This document shows, piece by piece, positions 11,785 to 30,378 of a stretch of DNA of 64,000 bases. The position numbers were made by a program, and so were the translations under genes. The DNA is taken from contig JBJEGD010000042.1 of NCBI GenBank assembly GCA_051874735.1, positions 1-64,000 of the forward strand. Reading direction: 5' to 3'. The DNA is from Candidatus Bruticola sp. (GTDB taxonomy: Bacteria > Vulcanimicrobiota > Xenobia > Xenobiales > Xenobiaceae). The notes beneath the pieces were generated by a model, which worked only from the letters and a program-made list of their open reading frames with translations, ran no database searches and was not told the DNA's origin. Position 1 is the first letter of the stretch; each line of letters starts with the position of its first letter.

Positions 11785-11823
11785 TGCGCCTCGGGGCTTA
11801 GCTAAGCCCCGGGGCGCATTTTT
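11785..11823 (+). terminator. Intrinsic terminator between fliF and fliG
   Basis: TGCGCCTCGGGGCTT-AGCT-AAGCCCCGGGGCGCA followed by TTTTT. Confidence 0.75.
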
Positions 11824-11978
11824 CTATTCCTGTTCATTTTCTAACAGCATATAAACTGCTTAATTCAGTGCTTAGCAAGATATAAGCGCTAGTAGTCGAA
11901 CAACGCCCCCGTATTTTTTCTGTTGCACAGCTGCAGCAGACGAATTATTTTACGATTTATGCTGAGGAGGTGCGGTTA

Positions 11979-12974: not shown

Positions 12975-12998
12975 ATATCTAAATTCTAAGCAAAGTAG

Positions 12999-14093
12999 GT
13001 GAGCACACTGGCTCTTTTTAAGGGAAATAATAACGGTCTGTCAGGTTCTGACAGTTCACCCAAACGTTCCGCTCTGTTGAAACAACGCCCTGCGGCCTTT
13101 CCCTCAGGCGCCCCCGGCGACGAACTTAGCGATTTCGTGCCTACAAATTTGGGGGCAACTAAAGTGTCTTCAGATGGAGGGCGCATATTCAGAGGGCGCA
13201 GCGCTGTTCCTGAAGCCCCACCTAAGACCAGCGGGGACGGTGTTTTTCGTCCTCAGACCGGACGTCCTCCAGCAGCTTCAACTTTAGGCAAAGTTTTCGG
13301 TAGCAGAAGAACGGAGAACTCCGATTACAAACTACCTCCCATCTCTTCTCAATCGGTAAGTGTGCCTACGGGCGATCCGCCGCCTCCAGGTGCCCCCCAG
13401 CCCCCTCCTCCGCCGCCGGTGGATAAAGAGATCATTGCTAAAGCTGAAGCTCAAGCCAGAGAGATGATTGCTCAGGCTCAAAACCAAATTCAGCAAATGA
13501 TCAACCAAGCTAACGAGCAAATCCAGCAGTTCAATGAACAGGCAGCAGCTGACGCGGAGCATGCCAGACAGGCGGCTTTTCAACAAGGTACTGCCCAAGG
13601 CATTGAAGAGGGCAGGCGCATGGCTCACCGCGAGTACGTCGATCTTATGCTTATGGCCCGCGATATTTACGTTCAGGCTATAAAAGAGCGACGCAAGCTT
13701 ATTGAAGACACTGAACCTGCTTTAGCTAAGTTATCCATCAGTATCGCTGAAAAGATCATAGGTTTAGAGGTCAGCACTAATAACGACGTCATTATGGGCG
13801 TTGTTAAAGAAGCTCTGGGCGATATGAAAGATCGCGAAGAAGTTAGAATCCGTGTCAATCCCGACGACTATCACATAGTGAACAACGATCGTTCGTCGCT
13901 CATGCGCATGGTCGAAGGATTAAAAGATTTTGATCTGGCCATCGATTCGAAAGTTACCCGTGGTGGCTGCGTTATCGAAACAAACTTAGGCAACATAGAT
14001 GCTCGTTTAGAAACACAGCTTGGTGCCATTACAACGGCTTTTGACAGAAGCGGCAAAGGAGAGGACATAGACGATGGCGCAAATGCCAGCTAA
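12999..14093 (+). CDS. fliH: Export ATPase regulator FliH with long Pro-rich N-terminal extension
   Basis: AxxxGxxxGxxxG (AFQQGTAQGIEEG), IAEKIIG, VRIRVNPDD, GGCVIETNLGNIDARLETQL. Confidence 0.93.
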   Translation: MSTLALFKGNNNGLSGSDSSPKRSALLKQRPAAFPSGAPGDELSDFVPTNLGATKVSSDGGRIFRGRSAVPEAPPKTSGDGVFRPQTGRPPAASTLGKVFGSRRTENSDYKLPPISSQSVSVPTGDPPPPGAPQPPPPPPVDKEIIAKAEAQAREMIAQAQNQIQQMINQANEQIQQFNEQAAADAEHARQAAFQQGTAQGIEEGRRMAHREYVDLMLMARDIYVQAIKERRKLIEDTEPALAKLSISIAEKIIGLEVSTNNDVIMGVVKEALGDMKDREEVRIRVNPDDYHIVNNDRSSLMRMVEGLKDFDLAIDSKVTRGGCVIETNLGNIDARLETQLGAITTAFDRSGKGEDIDDGANAS

Positions 14094-15657: not shown

Positions 15658-15660
15658 ATT

Positions 15661-16122
15661 ATGGGGCAGAAACGTTTCCGCTATCGTTTACAGCAAATTC
15701 TTGAATTAAAAATTCAAGCTGAAGAAGATGAAAAAGAAAAGCTGGCAAAACTTATTCAACAGCAGGAGAATGAGCGTCAAATTAAAGCTCAGCTCGAAAA
15801 AAAGCTCGTATCCATCAGAGAAGAGTTAAAAGTCAGACAAGCTAATGGCACCCTTGATATCAATCAGCTTAGGTTTTTTCCTCAGCATATTGAGTTCGTT
15901 AAAGGGCAAATTGTAAACCAAGAGCTCAGGCTTAAAGAGCTGACTATTCGTATCGCCCAACAGCGCGATAATCTTATGAAAGCAGCTCAAGAGAGACAGA
16001 GTTACGAAAAAAACAAAGAAAAAAGTCAGGAAAAATGGATGGCCGAAATTGAGCAAGAGGAGAACAAAATGCTAGACGAACTGGCGACTCTCAAATACGC
16101 CCGCGATCCATCCTCTATTTAA
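15661..16122 (+). CDS. fliJ: Export stalk protein FliJ
   Basis: KRFRYRLQQILELK...EEDEK; coiled coil; C-terminal EQEENKMLDELA; follows fliI. Confidence 0.92.
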   Translation: MGQKRFRYRLQQILELKIQAEEDEKEKLAKLIQQQENERQIKAQLEKKLVSIREELKVRQANGTLDINQLRFFPQHIEFVKGQIVNQELRLKELTIRIAQQRDNLMKAAQERQSYEKNKEKSQEKWMAEIEQEENKMLDELATLKYARDPSSI

Positions 16123-16293
16123 CATTATAACTTTTTACATCCGCAAAATATGCGGCCATGTATCTCTGGGAAAACAGCTAAACTTCTACTATAATAAAGA
16201 AAAAGAAGCTTGGCTCCCTGCTGAATATTCTCTGTCTTAACAGAGGCTATGTATAAGCAGCAAGCATAGCAGCGACAAAAGGAGGCTAATGAA

Positions 16294-16917
16294 ATGTCAA
16301 TATTCGCAAGAATAGATCAAATTGAGCGGCAGATGACCTCACTGGAGAACGCTCTGGATACTAAAATGAGTTCCAAATCCAGCGCAGGAAGTCTCAATAC
16401 TCCGCAGGATGCGGCATCATTCCAAAGCATGATTAATAGCATGACCAGTGGTCAGCGTTTCGATCCCGCTGCCGCTGCCATCAATTCCTCAAGCATAACC
16501 GGCAGCAATAGCTCTGGCGATTCTGCTCAGTTTGACAGCATTATCAAAGAAGCTTCCGAGAAGTACAATGTCGATCCCGCTCTTATTAAGGCCGTCATTC
16601 GTCAGGAATCAGCTTTTAATCCCCAGGCCACTTCAGTCTGCGGTGCTCAGGGATTAATGCAACTTATGCCTGAGACGGCCAGCGACTTAGGTGTGAAGAA
16701 CGCCTACGATCCCAAAGAGAATATCATGGGCGGAGCTAAGTATCTTGGCCAGCTTCTGGATATGTTTAACGGCGATATGACTAAAACTATCGCTGCCTAC
16801 AATGCTGGTCCAGGTTCTGTACAGCAGTACGGAGGCGTTCCTCCTTATCAAGAAACCCAAAATTACGTAGACAAAGTTCTGGGCTATTACCAGGAGAACA
16901 AGGGCATCAGCGCTTAG
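16294..16917 (+). CDS. Lytic transglycosylase (SLT family)
   Basis: LIKAVIRQESAFNPQATS, GAQGLMQLMP, ENIMGGAKYL, AAYNAGPG, ETQNYV. Confidence 0.95.
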   Translation: MSIFARIDQIERQMTSLENALDTKMSSKSSAGSLNTPQDAASFQSMINSMTSGQRFDPAAAAINSSSITGSNSSGDSAQFDSIIKEASEKYNVDPALIKAVIRQESAFNPQATSVCGAQGLMQLMPETASDLGVKNAYDPKENIMGGAKYLGQLLDMFNGDMTKTIAAYNAGPGSVQQYGGVPPYQETQNYVDKVLGYYQENKGISA

Positions 16918-16970
16918 CCGTCCTTTCCAAGTCTGCCACCTTTTCCAAATAGAAAAAGTAAGGAGCCGTT

Positions 16971-17921
16971 ATGGAAAATCAACTTTTTATATCTATGCTC
17001 GGATCTTCATCCATACAGCAGAACCGCGACAGCAAAAGCGAAAAAACTGAAACAAATTCCAGTGCTTTTAACAGTTGCTTAGAGGCTGCAACTTCTGATA
17101 AGGCCGGCACTGAAAATGACGTCATCGCTAAAAAAGAGACTCGTAAGGAAGCTGCCGAGCGTCAAAGGGCAGAAAAAGCCGAAGCTCAGGCTCAAGCTAA
17201 AGCTGAGCAGGCTAAGCTAACTCAAAATCCGCAGTCTATGGGCAGCAAAGCTTTCCTATACGACATGATGTACCGCAACCCGGATACTTTAAGTATGGCG
17301 GAAAAACAGGCGATGAAGCTCGATGAAGCTTCTAAGAATCTTAAAATGCAGACCATGCAACCTAAAGAGAACGCTGAAACCGCCAAAGGAACTAATGCCC
17401 AAACGGCCAACAGCGGCAAAGAAGCTACAGCTCTGAGTGCTCAAAAATTTGATGAACTTTTAGGCAAATCAACTAAAGCAAAAGAAGATGGCAAACAGCT
17501 TACTACTGAAGCTAGCCAGGCCGCTTCCAGCGCAACTAAAAGCGATAAGGCAGAAAAAGCTGAAGCTAATACTACCGCTCTTAACAATGCCGATAAAGCA
17601 GAAGAGACCAGCAAAACCCAGAGACTCACTCAAACTCAAAAGCGTCAACAGGTTATCAACCAGATTGTTACTCACATGGAGATCCGCAATTTCACCAGCC
17701 GTGATGAGCTCACTCTGCGCTTGAATCCAGAATATCTTGGCGAACTGAAAATTAAGATCAACCGTGGCAAAGATGGTGAATTGAGCGCCCAGTTCATTAC
17801 AGACTCAGAAGACACTCGTGAAGTTCTTCAAGATAGCCGCGCCGAACTGCGCGAGCATATCGAAAAGAAGGGCATGAACCTGCGCAGCATCGATATTGAA
17901 ATGGTCGATCATATAGCTTAA
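16971..17921 (+). CDS. fliK: Length-control / substrate-switch protein FliK
   Basis: Low-complexity A/K/E/T-rich N-terminus; C-terminal domain ELTLRLNPEYLGELKIKI...LSAQF...TREVLQDSRAELREHIEKKG. Confidence 0.9.
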   Translation: MENQLFISMLGSSSIQQNRDSKSEKTETNSSAFNSCLEAATSDKAGTENDVIAKKETRKEAAERQRAEKAEAQAQAKAEQAKLTQNPQSMGSKAFLYDMMYRNPDTLSMAEKQAMKLDEASKNLKMQTMQPKENAETAKGTNAQTANSGKEATALSAQKFDELLGKSTKAKEDGKQLTTEASQAASSATKSDKAEKAEANTTALNNADKAEETSKTQRLTQTQKRQQVINQIVTHMEIRNFTSRDELTLRLNPEYLGELKIKINRGKDGELSAQFITDSEDTREVLQDSRAELREHIEKKGMNLRSIDIEMVDHIA

Positions 17922-18095
17922 AGTTGGTTTCTAACCTGTTTGGGGCTTTATTGTTTACATTTTAGCAATAAACTGTTTAAGGCCCGACAATAAGCCATTG
18001 ATATTCTTACAGTGAGATGGAGAGGGCTTTTTCTCAGCAGGTCAAAACTTATGAGTGAAAGTGCCCAATGGGTTTAAGGAGGCAAAAAGTAGATC

Positions 18096-18914
18096 ATGTT
18101 TGATTTTAATAATTCAGCCAATGCCATTCAGCAGAACCAGACTATGCTGAACTCTTATTTCCAAAACTTGCAGAACCAGTTCACCCCCGGTTACAAAGCC
18201 GAGAGTGTGCAGTTCAATGACATTATGGGCCAGACTATGGGCGGCGGCGGTGCCAAAACCCAGTCTAATGGCATTATTTTTAGCCAGGGCCAGCTCTTCC
18301 AAACCGAATGTGCCACTAACCTCGCTATCGATGGCCAGGGCTTCTTCATGGTCAATGACGGCAATCAAACTCACTATACTCGTGATGGCCGCTTTGCTTT
18401 TAACAATGGTATGCTGACAAACAGCGAAGGCAAAAACGTCATGGGCTACAAATTAGACGCCCAGGGCAACATTTGCAGTGATCCTCAACCCATCGAACTG
18501 CACATGGATCCCAACACTAAGCTGTATGGCGGAAAATACACCGGTTATCACTTCGATGAAACTGGTAAGCTCTACGGTGAGCAGACCATTACCGATCCTA
18601 CTACTGGTCAGAGCGTTTCTGAGTCCGTGCCTATTGCCCAAGTATCCGTTGCCTCCTTCGCTAACGCTAGCGGTTTGAAGAAAACGGGAACTACCAGCTT
18701 CGGTAAGACTGACAGTTCTGGCGAAGCTGTAGTCGGCGTAGCCGGCCAGGGCGCCATGGGTCGCATCGCCGCTGGTAGCTTAGAGCTCGCCAATGTCGAC
18801 TACGCCCAGCAGGCTGCCGCAATAGGTATGGCCAAACAGAATTATGAAGCTAACTTTGCAGCTTTTAAAGCTATGGATGGTTTGATGGAATCTGCTATCG
18901 GTTTAGTCCGTTAG
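18096..18914 (+). CDS. Short divergent FlgE/FlgF/FlgG-family axial (hook/distal rod) protein
   Basis: TPGYK, FSQGQL, TNLAIDGQGFFMV, YTRDGRF, GKNVMGY, VASFANASGL, GSLELANVD, YEAN; occupies the flgE position. Confidence 0.88.
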   Translation: MFDFNNSANAIQQNQTMLNSYFQNLQNQFTPGYKAESVQFNDIMGQTMGGGGAKTQSNGIIFSQGQLFQTECATNLAIDGQGFFMVNDGNQTHYTRDGRFAFNNGMLTNSEGKNVMGYKLDAQGNICSDPQPIELHMDPNTKLYGGKYTGYHFDETGKLYGEQTITDPTTGQSVSESVPIAQVSVASFANASGLKKTGTTSFGKTDSSGEAVVGVAGQGAMGRIAAGSLELANVDYAQQAAAIGMAKQNYEANFAAFKAMDGLMESAIGLVR

Positions 18915-18948
18915 TTTTTCGTAATTTCCCATAAATACTTTATTTAAT

Positions 18949-18999
18949 AACACGACAAGGATCTATCTTACTATAGATAGTTTCTTGTCGTGTTTTTTT
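18949..18999 (+). terminator. Intrinsic terminator after the flgE-like gene
   Basis: AACACGACAAG...CTATCT/AGATAG...CTTGTCGTGTT followed by a T-run. Confidence 0.75.
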
Positions 19000-19228
19000 G
19001 TAAGGAATTCTATACTCAGCGTCGAAGACGAAGCAACCTTGAGGGGTATCGCTATTCTATTTTGTGTAAAGATACTCTATTTTAGAACTTGTGTTCCAAG
19101 TTCTATGTTGGTCAGAGAATTTGGAACTGTAGGAATACATGAAAAAACCAGCTTTTTAGTCTATACTCGCAGCTGGCCGCAACAAAGATAATAATTTAGA
19201 CCGGCTATGCTGCTTTGGGAGGAATCGA

Positions 19229-20200
19229 TTGCGCCAAGATCCTGGTAGTTATGACGAAATAATGCGGCTCACTTCATCTAGAAACGGTGAAGGAGCCTCA
19301 GCTTATGACTTTCGCAAAACAGAGAAGTTCACCGTAGATCAGAGGAAATTTTTAGAACGCGTTTTCGTGTCTTTTTCTGAAAGCGTAATTACTAGTTTGG
19401 CTCCGCTGATTCAGTCTCGCTTCCGTCTGGAACTTATGAAAATAACTTCGAGAAGTTATACTTCTTATATAAATTCTCTTTCGGGAACCACTCCTATGCT
19501 GGTTTTCCGTTTGGAGCAAGATGTTCAGGGATTTATCGACATAGATTTTGACTTAGCTTTTGCCCTTTTCGAACGGCTTATGGGCGGCAAAGGTATGCCT
19601 ATAGGCGACGAGTTGCGCGATTATTTCACCGATCTAGAGAAAGCGATTTTACAGAAACCTTTAGTCCGTATGCTCGACGCCTACACTCAGGCCTGGAAAA
19701 CTTTGAAACCAGTTAAGCCTCAGTTTGTGTCTTTCGAGTTTAATCCTATGGCTGTCCATATTGCCATTCCTTCTGAGCTCATGGTTATAATACCGTTCCA
19801 GGCAGAAATTGCCGCAGCCAGTGGCGCTATCAATGTAGTTTTGCCCTTCCGCTATTTGCGCGATTGTCTACCTAAAGGTTCTTACGATGAATTTAAGCTA
19901 ACCCAAGGTGTAAAAGCCGGTGCCCCTCAGCAGGCTATGACTCCTTTCTTGGTAGACGGCGTACAGAACGCTAAGGTTCCCATAACAGTCAGCTTAGGAC
20001 GCGCAGAACTGCTTTTCCAAGAATTGCTCAGTTTAGAAAGAGGCGATACTATACGTCTCGACACAGAAATTTCTCAACCTTTAAGAGTTAAAGTTAATAA
20101 TAAAACTAAGTTTTTGGGTCATCCTGGCACCAAAGATTCCAAACTGGCTTGTAAGATAAGCCGAGTATTACAAGATGGAGATGAAGAGTTCGATGAGTGA
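19229..20200 (+). CDS. fliM: C-ring protein FliM (CheY-binding N-terminus degenerate)
   Basis: YDFRKTEKF, ERLMGGKG, FTDLEKAI, FEFNP, C-terminal SPOA domain LLSLERGDTIRL; TTG start after GGAGG. Confidence 0.94.
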   Translation: MRQDPGSYDEIMRLTSSRNGEGASAYDFRKTEKFTVDQRKFLERVFVSFSESVITSLAPLIQSRFRLELMKITSRSYTSYINSLSGTTPMLVFRLEQDVQGFIDIDFDLAFALFERLMGGKGMPIGDELRDYFTDLEKAILQKPLVRMLDAYTQAWKTLKPVKPQFVSFEFNPMAVHIAIPSELMVIIPFQAEIAAASGAINVVLPFRYLRDCLPKGSYDEFKLTQGVKAGAPQQAMTPFLVDGVQNAKVPITVSLGRAELLFQELLSLERGDTIRLDTEISQPLRVKVNNKTKFLGHPGTKDSKLACKISRVLQDGDEEFDE

Positions 20201-20498
20201 TCAGCAAGGTCCGCGTTCTGTACAATTCGGCGTCTTAGACGGTTCTAGTCCTGCAGGAGGCACAGCTTCCAGCATAGATCTACTGCGTGATGTTCCTTTA
20301 GAAGTAAAAGCCGAACTAGGCAAAGCTAAGCGTTTAGTGCGCGAAGTTTTGCGCCTTAATGTAGGTACGGTCATTGACCTAGACAAAGAAGCTGGTGCCC
20401 CAGTCGATTTAATTATCAACAACCGCCCTATTGCCAGAGGAGAAGTCGTTGAAATCGATGGACGCTACGGCATCCGCATTACTGAAATAGTTCGCTGA
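20193..20498 (+). CDS. fliN: C-ring protein FliN (copy 1)
   Basis: SPOA domain DVPLEVKAELG...LNVGTVIDLDKEAGAPVDLIINNRPIARGEVVEIDGRYGIRITEI; ATG at 20193 overlaps the fliM end (alternative start 20175). Confidence 0.93.
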   Translation: MSDQQGPRSVQFGVLDGSSPAGGTASSIDLLRDVPLEVKAELGKAKRLVREVLRLNVGTVIDLDKEAGAPVDLIINNRPIARGEVVEIDGRYGIRITEIVR

Positions 20499-20541
20499 TC
20501 TAGGCCGTTGCGGCAAACTTAAATATATTGGAGGCAAACTA

Positions 20542-20847
20542 TTGGACAGCTTATCGGCTAGTGTAAGACGTTCTCAAAGAGCAAGTGTTTCTGCCAACAT
20601 GGCAGAAAATGCAGAAGATCTAAACATACTCTACGATGTACCTTTTGTTGTTGAAGCCGAGATGGGCAGTACTACCAGAAGCATTCGCGATGTCCTTAAG
20701 CTCGGCCAAGGAGCCCTTCTGGAGCTCGATAAAGATGAAAGGGCCCCTATCGATCTAAAAATAAATGGTCATTTAATAGCCAGAGGTGAAGTCGTAGAAC
20801 TGGATGGCTGTTACGCCGTGCGCATATCAGAACTTGTTTCCCAGTAA
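20542..20847 (+). CDS. fliN: C-ring protein FliN (copy 2)
   Basis: SPOA domain DVPFVVEAEMG...LKLGQGALLELDK...INGHLIARGEVVELDGCYAVRISEL. Confidence 0.9.
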   Translation: MDSLSASVRRSQRASVSANMAENAEDLNILYDVPFVVEAEMGSTTRSIRDVLKLGQGALLELDKDERAPIDLKINGHLIARGEVVELDGCYAVRISELVSQ

Positions 20848-21926
20848 TGTCAGACTTCGAATCGCTTCTTAAGCAAACTAACAAAGGCAAACGTCATTCT
20901 CTCCTTTCGGTGGGTGCCGTTTGCTTTTTGGCGTTTGTGTTTATTATTGGCTTGGGTATTTTTGATGCCAACAAATTGGATACTCTAAGCCGACCTCAAA
21001 CTTCTCAAACTCGAACGGGAAAAGATCTGCTCCATGAAGTTATGGAACAGGAAAAATCGACTCTTGAACAACAGCTGCAACAAGAGAATCAGAGCAAAAC
21101 GGCTCTTACTATCAAGCCGCCTAACTCTGAACTAGCCGAACGCCAAACTGTCCAGGGAGATACCCAAACTAATACAAAAACTAAAGAGACTATACCGCAA
21201 ATTTCTTCTATTTCCTCAAACTCAAAGCCATCCCAATATCAAGACAGCACGCATAATCTTAAGTCTTCGACCGGAGTTAAAGCCGTTTCCCCCCCAAATA
21301 GGACGCCTTCTTTATCGGATCAGAAGCCTCTCTCTTCGATCCAAGCAACCGCTGCAGAGACAAACAAGAGCCAAGATAGCTCTGACAATCCTTATTTTTC
21401 TATTCTTAATGAGCCGTGGCCCCCTTCATCAGCTCCAGGAGCGACAAAAGTTGAGTCAACCTTTTTGCCTCGCTTAGCCTCCATGTTCTTTATGCTGTGT
21501 ATTACCTGCGTTGTTATTTGGTTATCAATAAAGGTTTGTCTTCCAATCTTTAACAAATTTGCTAACAAAGCTACCTCAACTACTCATAATCGTATCAACA
21601 TAATTGAAAGGAAGGCTCTAGCTCCTAACAAGTTAATTGTATTGATCGAAACACACGGCCGCCATCTTCTACTTGGCGTCACAGAGCAGTCCATTTCCTC
21701 TTTGGCTAGTTTTGATATTGAGACTGATCAGATACAAGTTCAAAGTGAAGCTTCCACGGAAGCAGCCAACAGTTCTTCCCCCAGTAATATCGATAAACTT
21801 GGCCAACCTGCGGATATGCCCCAAGATTCTTCCAACTCAGCGGACATAAATCAAGGGAAAAAACCAAATTTAGTAAAAGAAGTAATCGACAGGCACCTTT
21901 CTTCTCTGCCTCTGATCAAAAACTAA
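20847..21926 (+). CDS. fliO: FliO (FliZ in Bacillus) export chaperone with large Ser/Thr/Gln-rich N-terminal extension
   Basis: TM LASMFFMLCITCVVIWL then RINIIERKALAPNKLIVLIETHGRHLLLGVTEQSISSL (FliO motif); position before fliP. Confidence 0.85.
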   Translation: MSDFESLLKQTNKGKRHSLLSVGAVCFLAFVFIIGLGIFDANKLDTLSRPQTSQTRTGKDLLHEVMEQEKSTLEQQLQQENQSKTALTIKPPNSELAERQTVQGDTQTNTKTKETIPQISSISSNSKPSQYQDSTHNLKSSTGVKAVSPPNRTPSLSDQKPLSSIQATAAETNKSQDSSDNPYFSILNEPWPPSSAPGATKVESTFLPRLASMFFMLCITCVVIWLSIKVCLPIFNKFANKATSTTHNRINIIERKALAPNKLIVLIETHGRHLLLGVTEQSISSLASFDIETDQIQVQSEASTEAANSSSPSNIDKLGQPADMPQDSSNSADINQGKKPNLVKEVIDRHLSSLPLIKN

Positions 21927-22032
21927 AAAAGTACCGTTTTTTGTTGTTACTGTTATCCATGTTCGAATGAAAGCGGCCCGTTCTAGTAGAATTATCTAAC
22001 TAAATTATCTTGAGTATAAAGCGAGAGATAGC

Positions 22033-22833
22033 ATGAATTTTCGCCTAAGACACATATTAACAATCTGTCTGCCTATTTTGGCTGTCGCTGTACTCTTTTG
22101 GCTTTTTACCGATGCAGCCAATGCTCAGAATCCATTTCCTCAGCTAAATATGCCGAATATCAGCATTAATGGAGCTAAGGCCAACGAAAAACAAACTTTT
22201 TCCACCACTCTGCTGCTGCTGGGAGGATTGAGTCTGCTGTCACTAGCTCCCTATATTTTAGCTATGTGTACAGCTTTTATACGCATAGTTATGACTCTGA
22301 GCTTCCTAAGATCGGCTATGGGAACCCAGCAAGTTCCTCCAACTCAGGTTTTGATGGGTTTAGCCCTGTTTCTTACCATGTTTGTTATGGCTCCCGTAGG
22401 CGAATCGATTAATAAAGATGCCTTACAGCCTTATCTGGCGGGAAAGATTTCTCAAAGCGCCTTCTTTGCTAAAGCTTACAAGCCCATCCAGTCTTTTATG
22501 CTCTATCAAACCAGAGAGAAAGACATTCAACTTTTCTTTGATATCGGTCGCGTCAAAAATATTACTAAACGCGAGGATATACCTTTCTATATTCTGCTGC
22601 CTTCGTTCGTGCTGTCAGAAATTAAAACTTCATTTCAAATAGGCTTCCTGCTTTACGTACCTTTCCTAGTCATCGATATGGTAGTAGCCTCAGTACTCAT
22701 GTCGATGGGTATGTTTATGCTCTCGCCAATGTCCATTTCTCTACCTTTTAAGCTGCTGCTTTTCGTATTGATAGATGGTTGGCATTTAATTATTAAAGGT
22801 GTAGTGGAGAGTTTCAATTATCCACGCTCTTAG
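22033..22833 (+). CDS. fliP: Export gate protein FliP
   Basis: MCTAFIRIV, LRSAMGTQQVPPTQVLMGLALFLTMFVMAPV, SEIKTSFQIGFLLYVPFLVIDMVVASVLMSMGM, SLPFKLLLFVLIDGW. Confidence 0.98.
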   Translation: MNFRLRHILTICLPILAVAVLFWLFTDAANAQNPFPQLNMPNISINGAKANEKQTFSTTLLLLGGLSLLSLAPYILAMCTAFIRIVMTLSFLRSAMGTQQVPPTQVLMGLALFLTMFVMAPVGESINKDALQPYLAGKISQSAFFAKAYKPIQSFMLYQTREKDIQLFFDIGRVKNITKREDIPFYILLPSFVLSEIKTSFQIGFLLYVPFLVIDMVVASVLMSMGMFMLSPMSISLPFKLLLFVLIDGWHLIIKGVVESFNYPRS

Positions 22834-22882
22834 CCTAGACAATAAGTTATAGTGTAGTAATAAAAGGATTATAGGAGGAAAG

Positions 22883-23179
22883 ATGTTCGTACTGGGGGCA
22901 GAAGTTTTCGACGACGGCTTCGTGCTAGCTCTCTGCACAAAGGCTCTTTATCTGGTGCTGGTTCTCTCAGCCCCAATGCTAATGTCCGCCCTGTCTGTAG
23001 GTCTTATGGTCAGTATCGTCCAGGCGACCACTCAGGTTCAGGAGCAGACGCTCTCGTTTGTACCCAAAATTATAGCTACTTTTATGGCTATAGTTTTGTG
23101 CGGAAACTGGATGTTCAATATGCTTTCCAGTTTTACTATATCCACTTTTGCCGATATCGCCCGCTTGGGGCCCAAATAA
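22883..23179 (+). CDS. fliQ: Export gate protein FliQ
   Basis: VGLMVSIVQATTQVQEQTLSFVPKI. Confidence 0.97.
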   Translation: MFVLGAEVFDDGFVLALCTKALYLVLVLSAPMLMSALSVGLMVSIVQATTQVQEQTLSFVPKIIATFMAIVLCGNWMFNMLSSFTISTFADIARLGPK

Positions 23180-23185
23180 AGTAGC

Positions 23186-23971
23186 ATGACTGGAATGATG
23201 AGCGATCCGGCCCTGCAGCTGCTGGGTGTAGGAATGCTTGCCTTCGTAAGAATGGCTCTTATATTTGTGCAGGCGCCGATTTTTGGAAGTAACCACATTC
23301 CCAATACCGTACTGGTGGGGACTGCGGCAGCTTTCACGATGGTGTTGTATCCTACTCTGCCCGTTCCTAACGATATGCCTACCGATCTGTTCCCTTTTTT
23401 GGGAGCTTTGCTCACTCAAGCATGCGTCGGGTTAGTAATAGGTTTCGTCTCGTTTATCGTCATCGCTGCAGCTCAGTTCGGCGGTGAAATGCTCGATATT
23501 CAAATGGGCCTATCTTCGGCAGCTTCCTTCGATCCTGCCAGCCATGGTGCTATCAACCTGCTGCGCAAAGTGCTATTTTACACATCTATGAATCTATACT
23601 TGGTTCTTGGTGGTCACCATCAACTTTTGGCCGCCGTCTACAAGAGCTATCAAGTAGTACCTCTGACCTATTTTCATATGTCAGAAAATTTAGCTATGAC
23701 TCTTCTGCGTATGAGCAGCGATCTTCTAGTTATAGGTACGCAGATTGCTGCGCCAGCCTTAGCAGCTTTATTCATAGCCCAGTGCGCTTTGGGTTTATTG
23801 GCCCGCGTGGCTCCTCAAATGAACATTTTCATGTTGAGTTTCCCACTCAACATTGCTATCGGATTGGTACTCCTGCGCCTCTCTTATCCTCTGGTAATGA
23901 GAGTGCTGGGCAATCAATTTGAAATAAACCTCGATATTTTGCTACAATGTATAGGAATGATGAAGCCATAA
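23186..23971 (+). CDS. fliR: Export gate protein FliR
   Basis: APIFG, AAQFGGEMLDIQMGLSSAASFDP, GGHH, IAAP, LLARVAPQMNIFMLSFPLNI. Confidence 0.97.
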   Translation: MTGMMSDPALQLLGVGMLAFVRMALIFVQAPIFGSNHIPNTVLVGTAAAFTMVLYPTLPVPNDMPTDLFPFLGALLTQACVGLVIGFVSFIVIAAAQFGGEMLDIQMGLSSAASFDPASHGAINLLRKVLFYTSMNLYLVLGGHHQLLAAVYKSYQVVPLTYFHMSENLAMTLLRMSSDLLVIGTQIAAPALAALFIAQCALGLLARVAPQMNIFMLSFPLNIAIGLVLLRLSYPLVMRVLGNQFEINLDILLQCIGMMKP

Positions 23972-23985
23972 GGAGGTGAAATTAG

Positions 23986-25188
23986 ATGGGTGGTCAGGAT
24001 AGCGACAAAACTGAAGAACCAACTGAACATAAGTTACAAGAAGCCCGCAAAAAAGGCCAGGTAATGAAAAGTCAGGAGGTGATATCCACCTGCCTGCTTT
24101 TGGCTACGGCCGGTGCCATGTACGGAGCCGGCGGCGGTATGTTGTCGAGAATACGTGAACTAACCATCTATGTATGGAGCTTAATACCGACCTATAATAT
24201 GAATGCTCGCAGTCTTAACGGGGATATTTTCCACGTTATGATTACCATTTTGTTAGTGTTGGCGCCGCTTTTAGCGGCAGGCTTCATGATGGCCATTGTG
24301 GCCAATATAGCTCAAGTACAGTTCATATTCTCAACTGAAACTCTTAAACCAAGTCTAAACAAGATAAATCCTTTAGAAGGCTTTAAAAAGATATTCAGTG
24401 TCAAATCAGCAGTTGAGCTACTTAAGCAGCTTGCTAAATTAGGTGTTATAGGTTACATATGCTATAAGGTTGTAGGGGAAGTTCTGCCCCAGCTGCAGAC
24501 AGCTCCAGCTATTCCTCTTATGGCTACTTTGGAACTCGTTGGTCTAACTGTTAAGAGCCTCGTTATGAAGGTTTTAGTTGGCATGGTGGTGATTGCCGGC
24601 CTCGACTACATCTTCCAGAAGAAGCAGTTTATGAAACAGATGCGCATGAGCATGCAAGACCTGAAAGACGAATACAAAGAGACTGAAGGAAACCCACAAG
24701 TAAAGGGTAAGCTCCGTCAGCTTATGCGCCAAAGCTCTCAAGGCGGTGGAGGCGGAGGTAACATGATGGCTGAAGTTCCTGATGCTTCGGCTGTAGTTAC
24801 TAACCCGACCCATTTGGCAGTAGCTCTCCGCTATAAACAAGGTGAAGATCCTGTGCCTATTGTTGTAGCTAAAGGCGAAAACATGACGGCCGTCCAGATA
24901 AAAATTATGGCTGAAGATCACGATGTGCCTATTGTCGAAAACGTCGAACTAGCTAGAGCCTTGTTTAAGACCTGTGAACTTTCCGGTCCGGTACCTACCG
25001 AAATGTACAAAGCTGTCGCTGAAGTGCTGGCTTATGTTATTAAACTTAAAAGAAAGCGCGAATTGCTGCGCAGGCGCCGTTTGGCCCGTAATGGCCCTCC
25101 ACGTCGGACAGCTCGTGCCGCTGTAGCCTCACCTTCTATGCCGAAAACTCAATTTACGGCTAGGAGCATGGCTTCAGGAAGACGTTAA
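23986..25188 (+). CDS. flhB: Export switch protein FlhB
   Basis: KTEEPTEHKLQEARKKGQV, KINPLEG, KDEYKETEGNP, intact NPTH autocleavage site, PIVVAKG; Arg-rich C-terminal tail. Confidence 0.97.
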   Translation: MGGQDSDKTEEPTEHKLQEARKKGQVMKSQEVISTCLLLATAGAMYGAGGGMLSRIRELTIYVWSLIPTYNMNARSLNGDIFHVMITILLVLAPLLAAGFMMAIVANIAQVQFIFSTETLKPSLNKINPLEGFKKIFSVKSAVELLKQLAKLGVIGYICYKVVGEVLPQLQTAPAIPLMATLELVGLTVKSLVMKVLVGMVVIAGLDYIFQKKQFMKQMRMSMQDLKDEYKETEGNPQVKGKLRQLMRQSSQGGGGGGNMMAEVPDASAVVTNPTHLAVALRYKQGEDPVPIVVAKGENMTAVQIKIMAEDHDVPIVENVELARALFKTCELSGPVPTEMYKAVAEVLAYVIKLKRKRELLRRRRLARNGPPRRTARAAVASPSMPKTQFTARSMASGRR

Positions 25189-25194
25189 TCAACA

Positions 25195-25220
25195 TTGACT
25201 GCTTTTCAGTCAGCTTTTTT
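25195..25220 (+). terminator. Weak intrinsic terminator candidate between flhB and flhA
   Basis: TGACTG-CTTTT-CAGTCA then GCTTTTTT. Confidence 0.4.
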
Positions 25221-25335
25221 CCAAGACTCGCACTTTTACCAAACGCGCAGTTCTTCCAGCAGCGCCAGGTTAATGTGTGAGTCTGTTGGTATTTAAATTA
25301 TATTTAATTTTAATATACTGGAGAAGTCGAATAAT

Positions 25336-27471
25336 ATGGGTGCCCAGCCCGGTGCAGAAGTATTAGACAAACTTATGAAATGCTCCGATATCGGCAGTGC
25401 TGTTGCTATTGTCGGTATTGTAGGCATGTTGATTGTTCCTCTCCCGCCAGACATGCTCGATGTGCTTCTGGCCTTCAATTTGGCCTGCGCCATCATTACA
25501 GTACTCATTTCAATTTACATTGAAGAGCCTCTGCAATTTGCTGTATTCCCTACAGTCTTGCTAGTAGCAACTTTGTTCCGTCTGGCTCTGGACGTCTCAG
25601 CTACGCGTATGATTCTGCTCCACGGCAATGAAATTGACGTAGTAACCAAGATGCCCACCGGTGCCGGCCACCTAATTCCTACATTCGGAAAGGTGGCTGT
25701 AGGAGGCAACTTAATCGTAGGCTTCATTATGTTTATCATTCTGATTATCATTCAGATTATGGTAATCACCAATGGTGCCGAACGTATAGCTCAGGTAGCG
25801 GCCCGTTTTAACTTAGACGCTATGCCTGGTAAGCAAATGGCTATCGACGCCGACCTCCATGCCGGCAATATCGATGCCGAAACAGCTAGAAAAAAACGCA
25901 AAGACATTGAGCGCGAATCTGACTTCTATGGTTCTATGGACGGTGCCGGCAAATTCGTAAAAGGTGACGCTATGGCTTCTATCGTCATTATGTTGGTCAA
26001 CGTCATCGGCGGTATCGGCATAGGCGTACTATACCACGGTATGGACATCGCTCACGCTCTTAACACCTACGCCATTTTATCTATAGGCAACGGACTTATG
26101 ACAACTTTGCCGGCCTTCTTAATGTCCACAGCTATGGGCTTGGTAGTTTCTCGTGCAGCCTCCGAATCTAACCTCGGACGCGACGTTGTCGAGCAGGTTT
26201 CCGGTCAGCCTGGCGCTTTAAAAATGGCTGGCGCCTTCATGCTCACCTTGGCCCTACTCTCCCTTTTAGCTGGTCTTCCTAAATTTATGGCCTTTACTTT
26301 GGCCTGCATCGGCGGCGCTCTCTTCTTCATGGGACATCAATTGGAAAAGAAAAACCAAGAAGTGGCTGCTGCAGTTACCGGAGGCACCACTACGGCCCAG
26401 GAGCAAAAGAAAAAGACGGAACAGAAAAAACCGGAGAGTGTCGTCCAGCTCATGCAGGTCGATCCCATCTCTTTGGAAGTTGGCCGCGGCTTGCTCTCTT
26501 TAGTAGACCCCAATCAAGGGGCCAAACTGCTCGATCGTGTAACCTCAATTCGCCGTCACATTGCTTTAGAGCTGGGTATTGTAGTACCAGGCGTGCGCTT
26601 CCGTGACAATTTGCAACTTAAGCCGAACGCTTATGTTATCAAGATAAAAGAAATAGAAGTCGCTCAGGGTGAAGTTCAAGTTAACCAATTCTTAGCGATA
26701 GGCCCTGAAGAGAAGCTTAAAAACTTACGCGGTACCAAAACTGTTGACCCGACTTACGGTATGCCAGGCGTATGGATTTCCCCAGAACAACGCGGCGATG
26801 CCGAACGTTTAGGATGCATGATCTTTGACCCTGTAAGCGTTATTGCAACTCAGCTGACCGAGGTTGTCAGAACTCATGCTTCTGAAATGCTGGGACGCCA
26901 GGAAGTTCAGGCTCTCATCGACACGGTCAAAAAGACCCATCCAGCAGTTGTCAAAGAAATCTTCCCCGACGCCTTGGGATTGGGCGAAATTCAGAAAGTG
27001 CTGCAGAATTTGGTCAAAGAGCGCGTGTCTGTGCGCGACTTAGTTTCTATTTTAGAAACTATGGGCGACAACGTACATATTACCAAAGATCCTGAAATGC
27101 TTACAGAATTCTGCCGTGTCAGCCTTTCTCGGGTCATTTGCAAGGACTACTGCAACAATGATGGTACGATCAACGTGATTACGCTCGATCCTAAAATTGA
27201 GCAAATGATTCAAGGCGCCATCCAGCGCAGTGAACTGGGCTCTTTCTTAACTCTCGATCCGAACTTAGGCCAGGAGATTTTGCAGGCTATATCTCAGCAA
27301 GCCAATGCTTTGCAAGAGCGAGGTCTTCAACCGATACTTTTGGTAGCTCCGCAGATTCGCCCAGCTGTACGTAAATTGACAGAGCGATCTTTCCCGAACT
27401 TGGTAGTTCTCTCTTGGAATGAGATAGCTCCTAAAATTAACGTAAACTCCGTGGGTATGGTCTCCTTCTAA
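25336..27471 (+). CDS. flhA: Export apparatus protein FlhA
   Basis: FPTVLLVATLFRLALDVSATRMIL, AQVAARFNLDAMPGKQMAIDADL, FYGSMDGAGKFVKGDA, KVLQNLVKERVSVRDL, VLSWNEI. Confidence 0.98.
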   Translation: MGAQPGAEVLDKLMKCSDIGSAVAIVGIVGMLIVPLPPDMLDVLLAFNLACAIITVLISIYIEEPLQFAVFPTVLLVATLFRLALDVSATRMILLHGNEIDVVTKMPTGAGHLIPTFGKVAVGGNLIVGFIMFIILIIIQIMVITNGAERIAQVAARFNLDAMPGKQMAIDADLHAGNIDAETARKKRKDIERESDFYGSMDGAGKFVKGDAMASIVIMLVNVIGGIGIGVLYHGMDIAHALNTYAILSIGNGLMTTLPAFLMSTAMGLVVSRAASESNLGRDVVEQVSGQPGALKMAGAFMLTLALLSLLAGLPKFMAFTLACIGGALFFMGHQLEKKNQEVAAAVTGGTTTAQEQKKKTEQKKPESVVQLMQVDPISLEVGRGLLSLVDPNQGAKLLDRVTSIRRHIALELGIVVPGVRFRDNLQLKPNAYVIKIKEIEVAQGEVQVNQFLAIGPEEKLKNLRGTKTVDPTYGMPGVWISPEQRGDAERLGCMIFDPVSVIATQLTEVVRTHASEMLGRQEVQALIDTVKKTHPAVVKEIFPDALGLGEIQKVLQNLVKERVSVRDLVSILETMGDNVHITKDPEMLTEFCRVSLSRVICKDYCNNDGTINVITLDPKIEQMIQGAIQRSELGSFLTLDPNLGQEILQAISQQANALQERGLQPILLVAPQIRPAVRKLTERSFPNLVVLSWNEIAPKINVNSVGMVSF

Positions 27472-27547: not shown

Positions 27548-27865
27548 ATGGAAATGGAACCTAGAGTAGGTTTAACTCCTGAAGAAATGATTACTAATTT
27601 TAACCGTATGTATCAAGATTCTTGGGAGCGCAGCCGCGAACAGATAGACTGGCAAGCCATTAAGAGACCTAACGCAGATCTCTCAAAATGGGTTCTGGAA
27701 GTATTAGAAATAGTGATGGCTGCTTCCAGAGATGCCATGACTTTTACCATAATGGAAAATAATAAGCGTATTGCTGAACAGATGGTGGAACAAGGGCTGC
27801 CAGTTCACATGGAAGAGGTACAAGATGACGGCTCTTCGGAATTAGATTTCGATCGCATGGCTTAA
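27548..27865 (+). CDS. Small acidic helical hypothetical protein (in the flhF position); candidate chaperone
   Basis: 105-aa ORF directly after flhA and before a strong terminator; no GTPase motifs, no TM. Confidence 0.75.
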   Translation: MEMEPRVGLTPEEMITNFNRMYQDSWERSREQIDWQAIKRPNADLSKWVLEVLEIVMAASRDAMTFTIMENNKRIAEQMVEQGLPVHMEEVQDDGSSELDFDRMA

Positions 27866-27871: not shown

Positions 27872-27926
27872 TACAAAAAAAATACGCCTTACCGAATGTT
27901 ATTCGGTAAGGCGTATTTTTTTTGTA
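27872..27926. terminator. Perfect inverted-repeat intrinsic terminator (works in either direction)
   Basis: TACAAAAAAAATACGCCTTACCGAAT-GTT-ATTCGGTAAGGCGTATTTTTTTTGTA (26-bp arms). Confidence 0.9.
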
Positions 27927-28062: not shown

Positions 28063-28341
28063 ATGAGTATACTTTCTAATGTATTCAGCAGTTTAGGCAA
28101 CGCTTTTTTTCAAAATAGCCAGCAGGCCCATATGCTGCAAATGTACACTAACGATATACAAAATGCCCAAACTATTTATGCCTCTATTGAAGCTCAAGCT
28201 CAAAAGAGCCAAATGGAACGCTGGAAGATAGCCAACGATACCCAAACTAAAATATTTGAAATTCAGCAAGACGTCACAGTCAATCGTGCTAAAACACAAG
28301 ACAAAATGTTTAATAAATGGAGCGATTACATTCGCTCTTAA
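28063..28341 (+). CDS. 92-aa helical protein, shared-C-terminal-domain family member 1 (needle/filament subunit candidate)
   Basis: ATG at 28063 follows SD GAGGT; last 55 aa align without gaps to the C-termini of the next two ORFs. Confidence 0.85.
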   Translation: MSILSNVFSSLGNAFFQNSQQAHMLQMYTNDIQNAQTIYASIEAQAQKSQMERWKIANDTQTKIFEIQQDVTVNRAKTQDKMFNKWSDYIRS

Positions 28342-28405
28342 TTAAGCGGCTTTCTTAAATTAATTTCCTTCCAGACTTATCCTTAAAGAAAGAGGTACAT
28401 TAAGT

Positions 28406-29215
28406 ATGGTGATTTCCGAAAGCCGCCTGTCTAATCCAACAGCTACGGCTACAATACATCCTCTCAATTCCTCCCCTATCTCAGACAGTCAAAATCCGTC
28501 AAGCTCATCCCAACCCACCGATACTTTTATAACTCAACAGCCAAGCACATATATCCCTACTATAAACAGATTTCCTTCAACAAGCTCACCATCAGATTCT
28601 TTAAGTACTTCAGAAGACAGTGAACTAACGGATACAAATACAACTATAAGTTCAAACGATTCTGATCCAGAAGCCATCTCATCAGACTCAAACTCTAATA
28701 CCTGCACTTCAGAAACTGAAAGGAATTGCTGCCATGAAGAGATCCCCCCCCCAGCCGCCCCCACCTTCATTTTTCAAGAAAATTTTTTCCAGCCTCTATC
28801 GTCAGCTACTCCAGCTGAAGCCAATAGCTCTCAACAAGAAGTTTCATCAATACCTGAAACTGTACAAGCTGCATCTGAAGATACTCAAAACTCTCAAGAC
28901 CAGACAAACGCCACTTTGCCAGCAGCCTATTACCCAGAAGCCAAAAAAGCGGATCCAACTCCAGAGCCCCCTCTGAGCCAAGCGGAAGAAAGAGCTCTAG
29001 CTGAAGAAAAAGAGCAGCAAGAGAAACTTCGCGTCCAGGCTATCTACGATCGTATGGAAGCCGAAAAAATCATTGCTGAAAATAAACGCCAGGCGATATG
29101 GGCCGATTTGCAAACTGAACTACAGCGCATCTGGAGAGAAGTCATGATTCGGCGCAAAAAATCAGAAGACGATTATATGAAAAACTGGCAAAAAGTATTC
29201 CTTAATGTAGGTTAA
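28406..29215 (+). CDS. 269-aa protein, Ser/Thr-rich disordered N-terminus plus shared C-terminal domain (family member 2)
   Basis: SD GAGGT; C-terminus IYDRMEAEKIIAENKRQAIWADLQTELQRIWREVMIRRKKSEDDYMKNWQKVF. Confidence 0.85.
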   Translation: MVISESRLSNPTATATIHPLNSSPISDSQNPSSSSQPTDTFITQQPSTYIPTINRFPSTSSPSDSLSTSEDSELTDTNTTISSNDSDPEAISSDSNSNTCTSETERNCCHEEIPPPAAPTFIFQENFFQPLSSATPAEANSSQQEVSSIPETVQAASEDTQNSQDQTNATLPAAYYPEAKKADPTPEPPLSQAEERALAEEKEQQEKLRVQAIYDRMEAEKIIAENKRQAIWADLQTELQRIWREVMIRRKKSEDDYMKNWQKVFLNVG

Positions 29216-29634
29216 TGTCTTATATTTTGCGTCCTATAAGCCGGCTGTATATCAATTGTAAATTTATAAAAAAGCCGAACTACAGCCGGCCTAAAAAGTT
29301 GACATAAAAATATTTAATCGACGAACATTTAATACGATCTAGCTAATTTCCTATTGAGACAGCAATAGAAATTTATCAATATCTATACAGCGATATAAAA
29401 AAGACTCGCACTATATGTATAAAGTTAAGCATACAATAGACGAACAAACATGATTTTTTTCGACAAAATCATGATCGCCAACAGCTATAAAATTCCAACA
29501 ATGGGGCTAAATTTCACAAATAAGCAACAAGACAACCTTTTTTTTAACAGGCTTAACAATTATAATGGTAGGGAAAATAAATGCATTATAGCCAGAGAGT
29601 TCTGGCCTTTAGCCTTGCAAGGAGGCCTGTATAA

Positions 29635-30378
29635 ATGGTTGCCCCTATCGGAATCAATACTAATGCCTATTCGCAGACCAATGCTGTCCGCAATATGCAG
29701 CAAGTTGGCGGTCAGAGCCAAGTAACCCGCCAATCCGACGTAGCTCCATCTCAGAGCGAAAATCAGCATACTGCTGCAGCTGACAATGTTCAGCTTTCCG
29801 AAGGTGTTTCGTTTGCTCAAGATGCCCAGGAAAATGCCACTCATATAGGTGCTGCTCAGAACCAATTTGAAAGTGAAATCGGTGACGCTTTTGAAAGTGC
29901 CGCAGAATCTGAAGTTGGTGCCTCTCAAGCTGGTGCGGCCGGTACTTCCGAAGAAGCAGCCGCTCCCCGTGAGCCTCAAACTGATGAGTATGGTTTCATT
30001 TTGATGGATGAACAGGGCAATCCTATTGGCGGAAGCGTTCCTCCAGAGGATGGCGGCTCCGGTGCTCCTCCTATTGACGGTGGTGGCAATGCTGGTCAAG
30101 CTGGTGAAGTACCCCCTGAGGATGGTGGTGCTGGGGAAACTCAAGAAAGCGAAGCTTCCAGAGCTTCTCGTCTTCAGTCGATGGAGCAAGATCGTGAAGA
30201 GGCCATGAAGATCTACACTCAAATGATGGCAGATCGTCAAAAGTGGTTTGCTGAACTGATGAAGATCCTTGCCGATACTCAGGCGTCAATTTTCGACATT
30301 ATCCAACAGACCATGACCAACCGTGCTATGGCTTTCGATAGAGCTATGGCTGGATGGTCCAGAGCCTTCAACGGATAA
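29635..30378 (+). CDS. 247-aa protein, acidic Gly/Pro-rich N-terminus plus shared C-terminal domain (family member 3)
   Basis: SD AAGGAGG; AADNVQLSE; three PP(E/I)DGG repeats; C-terminus IYTQMMADRQKWFAELMKILADTQASIFDIIQQTMTNRAMAFDRAMAGWSRAF. Confidence 0.88.
   Translation: MVAPIGINTNAYSQTNAVRNMQQVGGQSQVTRQSDVAPSQSENQHTAAADNVQLSEGVSFAQDAQENATHIGAAQNQFESEIGDAFESAAESEVGASQAGAAGTSEEAAAPREPQTDEYGFILMDEQGNPIGGSVPPEDGGSGAPPIDGGGNAGQAGEVPPEDGGAGETQESEASRASRLQSMEQDREEAMKIYTQMMADRQKWFAELMKILADTQASIFDIIQQTMTNRAMAFDRAMAGWSRAFNG

Follow-up and report, generated by a model that had tools for sequence, protein, structure and literature searches.

A multi-copy family of helical proteins beside a flagellin-less flagellar-type export system in Xenobia: candidate late export substrates

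Three tandem genes at positions 28,063 to 30,378 of a Candidatus Bruticola sp. contig encode proteins with a common C-terminal domain and lie a short distance downstream of flhA, the last gene of a flagellar-type export operon. The window, i.e. the whole stretch of DNA that was analysed, comprises 64,000 nucleotides (contig JBJEGD010000042.1, positions 1 to 64,000, forward strand). A sequence-only reading of it had described the common part as a helical domain of 55 residues and had proposed a needle, filament, tip or translocon family. We find that the genes are members of a family that accompanies a separate lineage of flagellar-type export systems, and we tentatively interpret the proteins as late export substrates of such a system. 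The three genes are the following.

28063..28341, + strand: 92-aa stand-alone family member, candidate major subunit; common domain at 28123-28338
28406..29215, + strand: 269-aa paralogue with a Ser/Thr/Pro-rich N-terminal region and the C-terminal common domain at 28982-29212
29635..30378, + strand: 247-aa paralogue with a conserved N-terminal motif ..N.QQVGGQ.., a Pro/Gly-rich linker and the C-terminal common domain at 30160-30375

All three open reading frames (ORFs) start with ATG, preceded by a Shine-Dalgarno-like GAGG, AGAGG or GGAGG, and end with TAA. Translation of 28174-28338, 29042-29212 and 30211-30375 reproduces exactly the domain peptides quoted in the sequence-only reading, and its ungapped identities were all correct upon recounting (21/55 for the first against the third, 15/55 for the first against the second and for the second against the third). 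The same holds for the ten invariant positions (I1, Y2, A7, I19, D22, Q24, I30, R38, D43 and W49) and for the domain Trp, which is trailed by 6, 8 and 6 residues in ORFs 1, 2 and 3. The N-termini have no alignable similarity, and the genes are indeed unannotated, every family in Pfam and NCBIfam scans scoring below its cut-off. The absence of Sec signals was judged by reading the three sequences rather than with a predictor.

With 20,000 shuffles per pair, none reached the observed domain identity for any of the pairs. In BLASTP, the 92-aa protein matches the 247-aa protein with E=2e-8 (39% identity over 67 aa) and the 269-aa protein with E=3e-5, while the two longer proteins match each other with E=0.08. 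The paralogy of the three ORFs is significant: they are real genes and paralogues of each other, within a family that as yet has no name. The similarity between them begins some 17 residues before the domain start given earlier, at 28123, 28982 and 30160. An AlphaFold2 (AF2) model of the 92-aa protein, based on a 26-row alignment, is one unbroken helix from residue 3 to residue 91, with a mean predicted local distance difference test (pLDDT) score of 80.5 and a range of 57-93 along the chain. As to the longer paralogues, orthologues of 237-356 aa occupy the position of the 269-aa protein in related genomes, and the subfamily of the 247-aa protein is visible in a 22-member alignment.

The family is considerably larger than these three members. 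With the 92-aa protein as query, a word-indexed search gave 204 proteins; among the best 120 of them most are "hypothetical proteins" of 77-81 aa. Where a source is named, which is seldom, it is Candidatus Bruticola, Xenobium, Xenobia or Eremiobacterota, apart from some metagenome-assembled genomes (MAGs) under other labels. An exhaustive profile search gave 478 representatives (at 50% identity) with E<=1e-3, 241 of them with E<=1e-10, mainly from Eremiobacterota (Xenobia) MAGs. In these 478 the domain is almost always at the extreme C-terminus, preceded by anything from 0 to 1,876 residues. The stand-alone form has 77-92 aa and is multi-copy; by a simple heuristic, small stand-alone forms without a signal-peptide-like N-terminus account for 34 of 150 among the representatives listed. 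Conservation among 118 small members increases towards the C-terminus, the mean pairwise identity being 43% over the first 20 columns, 67% in the middle and 87% over the last 40 columns. Their composition is rich in Gln (17%) and nearly free of Cys and Pro, and their hydrophobic moment is maximal at 98 degrees per residue, as in an amphipathic helix. Family-positive genomes hold between 1 and 9 matches. The genome to which the window belongs (G000) has 6 copies, 3 of which are near-identical small genes in tandem on another contig, adjoining fabI and bamA/bamB-like genes.

A frequent class of 145-180 aa (P0244, P0164, P0128, P0138, P0228, P0153, P0191 and others) consists of an N-terminal domain of about 90 aa, with the consensus start M.T.VVEL.GP.F and no Pfam match, followed by the family tail. 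No description of the family or of its export system was found in the accessible parts of the literature on flagella of Eremiobacterota, Xenobia or UBP9, or on flagellin-less flagellar type III secretion systems (T3SSs).

The export machine next to the genes is spread over two loci.

8600..27471, + strand: flagellar-type T3SS core operon, from Pfam matches
G000:C26:82625-88970 (L008:6625-12970), on a separate contig of the same genome: second flagellar locus

The order in the core operon is FlgB, FlgC, FliE, FliF, FliG, FliH, FliI, FliJ, an SLT lytic transglycosylase, a FliK-like protein, a short FlgE-like protein (272 aa), FliM, two FliN, FliO, FliP, FliQ, FliR, FlhB and FlhA. FlhA scores 801 bits with TIGR01398 (cut-off 772), as compared to 620 bits with SctV (cut-off 692). 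FlhB (372 bits, cut-off 349) and FliI_clade2 (658 bits, cut-off 630) also pass the NCBIfam flagellar equivalogs, as do FliF and FliP, and since all Sct equivalog models stay below their cut-offs on the core proteins, the machine is of the flagellar and not the injectisome type. No injectisome parts were identified in it. The second locus encodes a 469-aa FliK-like protein, a 94-aa ORF resembling the C-terminal part of FlhB, FlgF, FlgG, a FliA/WhiG sigma factor (TIGR02479, 195.8 bits against a cut-off of 189.6), a TPR protein, and an FlgJ-type rod-binding protein without a hydrolase domain.

It should be kept in mind that the genome has 2.47 Mb and is 92% complete, an incompleteness that makes absence unprovable. 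Within it, Flagellin_N, FlgK-type proteins (further Flg_bbr_C matches), FliD_C, FliS, FlgH and FlgI were not found, and FlgM gave no match over the Pfam cut-off. As regards the stator, MotB_plug was not found either, and the sole match to the MotA/ExbB family is an ExbB that adjoins two ExbD genes. The gene inventory indicates that the machine retains a rod, a short hook, a length ruler and a substrate switch, with no known late substrates and no stator found. The same picture is obtained for close relatives: Flagellin_N is found in 0/18 genomes of the taxonomic family, nor in G000, and MotB_plug in 0/10 genomes of the genus, G000 counted. Divergent from flgB, there is an ORF of 171 aa (7474-7989, - strand) without Pfam or NCBIfam match that carries a 'DNVSLSSEATEAQ' stretch; its position and the 'DNVSLSSEATEAQ' motif are, in what we take to be a resemblance, reminiscent of flgM.

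The association of the family with this machine was examined in an even set of 251 genomes of the phylum, a few of which are flagged unpublished, none of these being family-positive. The family profile matches 54/251 genomes, including all 18 of the same taxonomic family plus G000, and Flagellin_N is matched in 102/251. In at least 30 of the 54 family-positive genomes, a comparison of coordinates places a family copy 0.5-4.1 kb 3' of flhA and on its strand. We have also inspected 79 family loci from named species genomes with a 6-kb flank. The usual gene order in them is flhA, a small ORF called orf105 here, 1-3 small copies, and then long paralogues of the 269-type and 247-type.

27548..27865, + strand: orf105, a small acidic conserved ORF between flhA and the family genes, candidate chaperone or partner

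An orf105 homologue stands between flhA and the first family gene in 24/24 of the loci that have flhA within the flank. Altogether, homologues of 81-144 aa are present upstream of the family gene in 29/79 loci, 5 of which have no flhA in reach; they also occur upstream of the family gene in L010, L011, L013, L015 and L016. The homologues used for comparison were taken from the family loci. A protein-database search for homologues of orf105 returned 2 proteins only, no Pfam, NCBIfam or PDB-sequence match was obtained, and an Atlas feature search with a homologue gave nothing usable.

A careful maximum-likelihood tree of 47 FlhA sequences, with 2 further flagellin-linked rows left out, is split with 100/100 support into 32 rows that include 23/23 of the family-linked sequences and 15 rows that include 6/6 of those linked to flagellin or MotB. 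The latter side includes second FlhA genes from genomes that also hold a family-linked FlhA. Within the order to which Candidatus Bruticola belongs, strong MotB_plug matches occur in only 7/40 genomes, all 7 of them flagellin-positive, and 2 weak matches elsewhere. The family is part of a distinct lineage of flagellar-type export systems, one without flagellin and stator.

A third, very divergent type of FlhA, about 43% identical to that of the window, is present in families f15 and f20 of the phylum (G011:C1:2790572-2792551, G041:C12:13146-15149 and G036:C1:1379835-1381790; loci L141-L143), and many of the genomes that carry it have neither a flagellin match nor the family. In another genus, represented by G048, the family profile gives no match; two ORFs a few kb 3' of flhA (L139:13879-14478 and 14491-15333) end in Trp-containing helices and resemble strongly diverged long paralogues.

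The family genes also have expression signals of their own. In the window, the transcript of flhA and orf105 would be closed before the 92-aa gene.

27878..27920, + strand: intrinsic-terminator-like hairpin with a 20-pair stem and a T run, closing the flhA-orf105 transcript

A promoter-like motif, TTTAC-N17/18-GATAA, ends 25-55 nt 5' of the start codon in 35/101 small family genes (29/72 loci). Only one of the 35 cases is inside a called ORF, and the spacers between the two blocks are unrelated. Elsewhere, the motif precedes 1/504 other genes, 0/43 long paralogues, 0/29 orf105 genes and 0/20 flagellin genes of relatives. It was derived by k-mer counting followed by a pattern count, DNA alignment of the upstream regions being uninformative. 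The small genes thus form a promoter class of their own. With the sigma-28 consensus used for comparison, a canonical sigma-28-like site (T[TA]AAG-N14-16-GCCGATA) was found at 4/20 flagellin genes of related genomes as against 0/101 family genes. An obvious candidate for a reader of the small-gene motif would be a FliA/WhiG-type factor.

Two tandem ORFs of 280 and 495 aa (G000:C4:90921-91763 and 91959-93446; L144:4922-5761 and 5960-7444) are preceded by TTTACTT..GTGATAA, the same promoter-like motif that the small family genes have. The first has a Gly-zipper_Omp match over the cut-off (26.4 bits); the second has additional GGxGxD-like and GGMYGNM repeats and is 45% identical to the first over 132 aa. 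Kinship of their N-termini with the family was considered and is not significant (hhalign E=0.011, probability 3.9%). These ORFs may be in the same regulon as the small family genes, as candidate membrane-active substrates.

We next consider to what extent the proteins resemble known export substrates. When 26 members were compared with Pfam at E<=10, HrpA_pilin (PF09589) was the sole biologically meaningful recurrent family (6/26), the best match having E=4e-4 and 21.5 bits against a gathering cut-off of 25 (P0014 residues 11-61 on positions 28-78 of the 96 of the profile). SctF (PF09392) is absent from the Pfam families matched in this comparison, and flagellin (PF00669/PF00700) has no match in the three ORFs, nor in 22 long paralogues at E<=1. 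A feature query of the ESM Atlas with a stored 78-aa member gave a best score of 0.91, with 184 shared features, for clusters in which 23-24% of the members bear HrpA_pilin, followed by an HrpE-like cluster (0.86) and a cluster bearing T3SS_needle_F (0.81). These HrpA_pilin and Atlas matches both depend on features of the sequence and are leads to membership among the pilins, not proof of it. When compared with PDB sequences, the profiles made from the family, the 247-aa subfamily and orf105 gave nothing below E=0.02 and only coiled-coil or low-complexity noise.

The layout of the Hrp pilins (HrpA PF09589; HrpE PF28047) comes close to that of the family: both consist of mostly helical proteins of about 60-115 aa without a Sec signal. 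Hrp pilins are hypervariable, while the present family is multi-copy and extremely conserved, and its machine is of the flagellar type with rod, hook, FliK and C-ring. The 9.7-kDa Xanthomonas pilin HrpE is described as carrying its T3SS signal at the N-terminus, with an N-terminal half that varies and a C-terminal half that is conserved and most helical (PMC6026121). The pilins and the family also have in common a variable N-terminal and a conserved helical C-terminal part and a gene in a T3SS locus.

SctF and SctI, for their part, are similar to the family in size, in helicity, in having a conserved C-terminus as the presumed driver of assembly, and in a small neighbouring ORF that could be a chaperone. 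They differ in that no Pfam or PDB match links them to the family, AF2 predicts an unbroken helix for the monomer rather than a hairpin, and the core here scores as flagellar and not as Sct. To the flagellar late substrates (FliC, FlgK, FlgL, FliD and FlgM) the family is similar in its place within the system, its genes lying 3' of the export gate genes, forming a separate promoter class, occurring in several tandem copies and having a candidate chaperone. The family promoter shares the two-block geometry of the sigma-28-like flagellin sites; the blocks themselves differ, being TTTAC..GATAA as compared to T[TA]AAG..GCCGATA. The family, however, has no Flagellin_N, Flg_bbr_C, FliD or FlgM match, and flagellin is five times larger. 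Finally, flagellar basal bodies are retained as protein exporters in non-motile Buchnera, which is likewise a case of a flagellar export core without flagellin. The present system differs from that type in retaining hook, FliK, C-ring and sigma factor, in having conserved multi-copy candidate substrates of its own, and in that its FlhA proteins make up a clade apart from those of the true flagella that the phylum also has.

Taken as a whole, the reading that we favour, albeit only tentatively and with a good deal of room for doubt, is that the family proteins are late export substrates of a flagellin-less system, in which the small form would be the major self-assembling subunit, the long paralogues minor ones and the orf105 product a chaperone. 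We infer the following course of events. The rod and the short hook would be assembled first, after which the FliK/FlhB switch would redirect export to the family proteins. The amphipathic C-terminal helix of about 70 residues that is common to the paralogues would serve as a self-association module, and the 77-92 aa form, produced from several separately promoted copies, would polymerise via this conserved helix on or beyond the hook, working like a Hrp pilin or a needle protein. The long paralogues would co-assemble via the same helix as minor, adaptor or tip subunits and expose their variable N-terminal regions, and in the cytoplasm the subunit would be held by the orf105 chaperone.

The sequence-only reading had gone in the same direction by proposing the 92-aa protein as the major subunit of a non-flagellin appendage. 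This part is supported by the link to the locus, by the failure to find flagellin and stator, by the multi-copy short form and by the fact that the long paralogues share the tail only. Its comparison with needle, rod and pilin proteins holds for the variable N-terminus and conserved helical C-terminus and is encouraged by the weak Hrp-pilin leads; homology to SctF, SctI, EspA or flagellin D0, on the other hand, finds no Pfam or PDB-sequence match. The proposed association with motor-less flagellar clusters and type III loci is likewise borne out in part. Of the 54 family-positive genomes, 40 are without a Flagellin_N match, and flhA is in the flank of 24/79 loci.

A number of observations weigh against the favoured reading. 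FlhA is present in 238/251 genomes, so that its co-occurrence with the family at the genome level is uninformative, and about 50/79 loci are satellites away from flhA, each with 1-3 small copies. One genus in the same FlhA clade, that of G048, has no small form (0/6 genomes) and only diverged long forms. The HrpA_pilin match is sub-threshold and falls on a Gln/Ala-rich stretch, and Atlas scores of 0.9 are expected by chance 4-10 times in 100. Against PDB chains the family profile gives no needle, flagellin or other match, only coiled-coil and low-complexity noise with E>=0.5. Needle proteins are helix-turn-helix hairpins, and the AF2 monomer is one long single helix, although a monomer model of an assembling subunit may differ from the assembled form. 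Neither an L/P ring nor a candidate secretin was found, so that a filament would need another way across the outer membrane, or the exported product may be periplasmic. The domain also tips Rhs, VgrG, PAAR, TIR, CHAT and trypsin proteins, which a plain filament subunit would not predict.

These fusions deserve a closer description. In P0198 the tail follows the end of an SLH-DUF6531-RHS protein; 40 Rhs relatives share its core, with matches that stop at residue 1857-1858 or before, and the tail is present in 0/40 of them. In P0158 and P0271 it follows the gp5 trimerisation domain of VgrG. Among the proteins scanned, it is C-terminal on 9 TIR_2 proteins, one of which combines Trypsin_2, TIR and TPR, and on 1 CHAT protein. 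In a scan of the phylum for TIR_2, the one TIR ORF of the genus of Candidatus Bruticola is on a contig without a family match. The gene of a PAAR protein that ends in the domain (L133:5047-6189) lies after vgrG and before an FHA-DUF4123 gene, within a type VI secretion system (T6SS) locus of an Acidobacteriaceae-labelled MAG. That locus (L133:2269-7644) encodes ClpV, VgrG, a 151-aa ORF, the PAAR protein with the domain, the FHA-DUF4123 protein and a DUF7948 protein longer than 1,454 aa.

Effector-associated domains (EADs) of bacterial conflict systems are described as small, non-enzymatic, all-helical domains at the termini of effectors that are proposed to act as homotypic coupling adaptors (Kaur et al. 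2020, PMC7159879). The family has in common with them the kind of domain, which is small, helical and non-enzymatic, the place at an end of TIR, CHAT and trypsin proteins, and the many stand-alone or paralogous copies. It differs in that the EADs are described there without a T3SS locus, T6SS spikes or Rhs (PMC7159879), and Pfam at E<=10, EAD models included if Pfam holds them, gives chance-level matches only on the family. Following the coupling logic described for EADs (PMC7159879), self-association of the helix would be a property that fits every context: it would oligomerise TIR and protease effectors, extend or load spikes, and polymerise alone.

There are three other explanations. The helix could be a homotypic coupling or targeting module, and the family a docking tag or a secreted cargo with no long polymer at all. 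The small proteins would then be secreted or located in the envelope, and proteins with the same tail, the long paralogues here among them, would be recruited to the small proteins or to the export machine by helix-helix pairing. The C-terminal position on TIR, CHAT, trypsin-TIR-TPR, VgrG and PAAR proteins speaks for this, as do the homotypic adaptor role described for comparable helical domains at effector ends (PMC7159879) and the PAAR fusion, where a gap of 127 nt leaves no room for an immunity gene before the FHA-DUF4123 gene of adaptor type. Moreover, by a crude heuristic, Sec-signal-like N-termini occur in 15/150 among the representatives listed, which suggests that the domain in some lineages acts outside the cytoplasm without any T3SS. 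We regard this explanation as rather unlikely, but as a serious rival all the same. Against it, the small form shows much stronger conservation than typical adaptors and occurs in more copies, and the retention of the switch and of a late promoter class would be unexplained unless something abundant is exported. It could alternatively be that the tail is a toxin module, i.e. a small helical toxin delivered via the T3SS when it stands alone and via T6SS or Rhs as a fusion. The site after the RHS core is where polymorphic toxins bear their toxin tip, and this is where P0198 carries the domain; the 40 Rhs loci that share the core without the tail behave as expected for an exchangeable tip, and the VgrG and PAAR fusions put the domain at the effector position of evolved spikes. 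Yet no immunity gene follows the PAAR fusion, and between the tandem small copies (L007) there is no immunity-like ORF of at least 70 aa except where an ORF overlaps the small genes. So strong a conservation is unlike that of fast-evolving tips, the TIR, CHAT and trypsin proteins already have an N-terminal effector domain, and a producer has up to 9 copies, which makes a toxin very improbable.

A non-structural role in the cytoplasm, as an FlgM-like anti-sigma factor, a FliJ/FlgN-like coiled coil or an FlhA-binding gate regulator, we consider improbable as well, if slightly less so than a toxin. A FliA/WhiG sigma factor is present while FlgM is below the Pfam cut-off, and the small form, with about 80-90 aa and a helical nature, would be comparable to FlgM-type proteins. 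Some long paralogues, furthermore, start with MRINPNIQ.. or MKINPHIQ.. and have a D.V.LS.QAK stretch, features that we take to be reminiscent of flagellin and FlgM N-termini. The FlgM identity of the long paralogues was, however, rejected for lack of Pfam support: FlgM (PF04316) matches 0/22 of them at E<=1, nor does it match the small members. The PDB contains both FlgM and FliJ, and the profile comparison with its chains gave only noise of the kind mentioned above. In addition, copy numbers of 4-9 per genome, with a separate promoter and terminator for every copy, and an identity of 87% throughout the phylum are unlike FlgM, and fusions to Sec signals, Rhs and VgrG are unsuited to a cytoplasmic role. 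The probability that remains beyond the favoured reading and these three is left to other explanations.

Returning to the reading of the family as late export substrates, we can place it in a wider context. The well-described type III machines form two families only, flagella and injectisomes, and the origin of one from the other has long been debated. In the genomes examined here there is a whole clade of flagellar-type export systems in which neither flagellin nor stator was found. True flagella exist alongside it in the phylum and, in some cases, within one genome. The clade has its own conserved, multi-copy candidate substrate with a Hrp-pilin-like layout. If the small protein is indeed exported and assembles, this would be a testable case of a flagellar export core reused for a non-flagellin appendage or for secretion. 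The first cultured member of the phylum, from another class, is reported to have neither flagella nor a flagellin gene (PMC9758169). The proposal would then explain why flagellar genes are annotated in Eremiobacterota without observed flagella or flagellin, with the proviso that this observation is from another class (PMC9758169). Quite apart from this, the family is a new helical module among those that T6SS spikes, Rhs proteins and TIR/CHAT effectors carry. In its boldest form, which we think doubtful, the proposal would be that Eremiobacterota (Xenobia and relatives) carry a third type III nanomachine besides flagellum and injectisome, a motor-less and flagellin-less descendant or sister of the flagellum that would export a 78-aa helix and polymerise it into a pilus-like or periplasmic filament, with minor subunits sharing the helix, and that the same helix would have been co-opted across phyla as a self-assembling docking tag for T6SS spikes, Rhs proteins and TIR/CHAT effectors.

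Some further genes were noted in the neighbourhood. Just 5' of the flagellar operon of the window there are two large ORFs, one of 606 aa (3517-5337, - strand) and one of 633 aa (5491-7392, + strand), neither of which has a Pfam match and the second of which has no NCBIfam match either. In several genomes (loci L122, L075, L089, L093, L101, L108 and others), 1-2 zinc-ribbon helical proteins are encoded on the opposite strand 3' of the long paralogues (12 loci), and the same region also holds genes for a LolA-like secreted protein (8 loci) and for a LysM-NlpC/P60 peptidoglycan hydrolase (8 loci).

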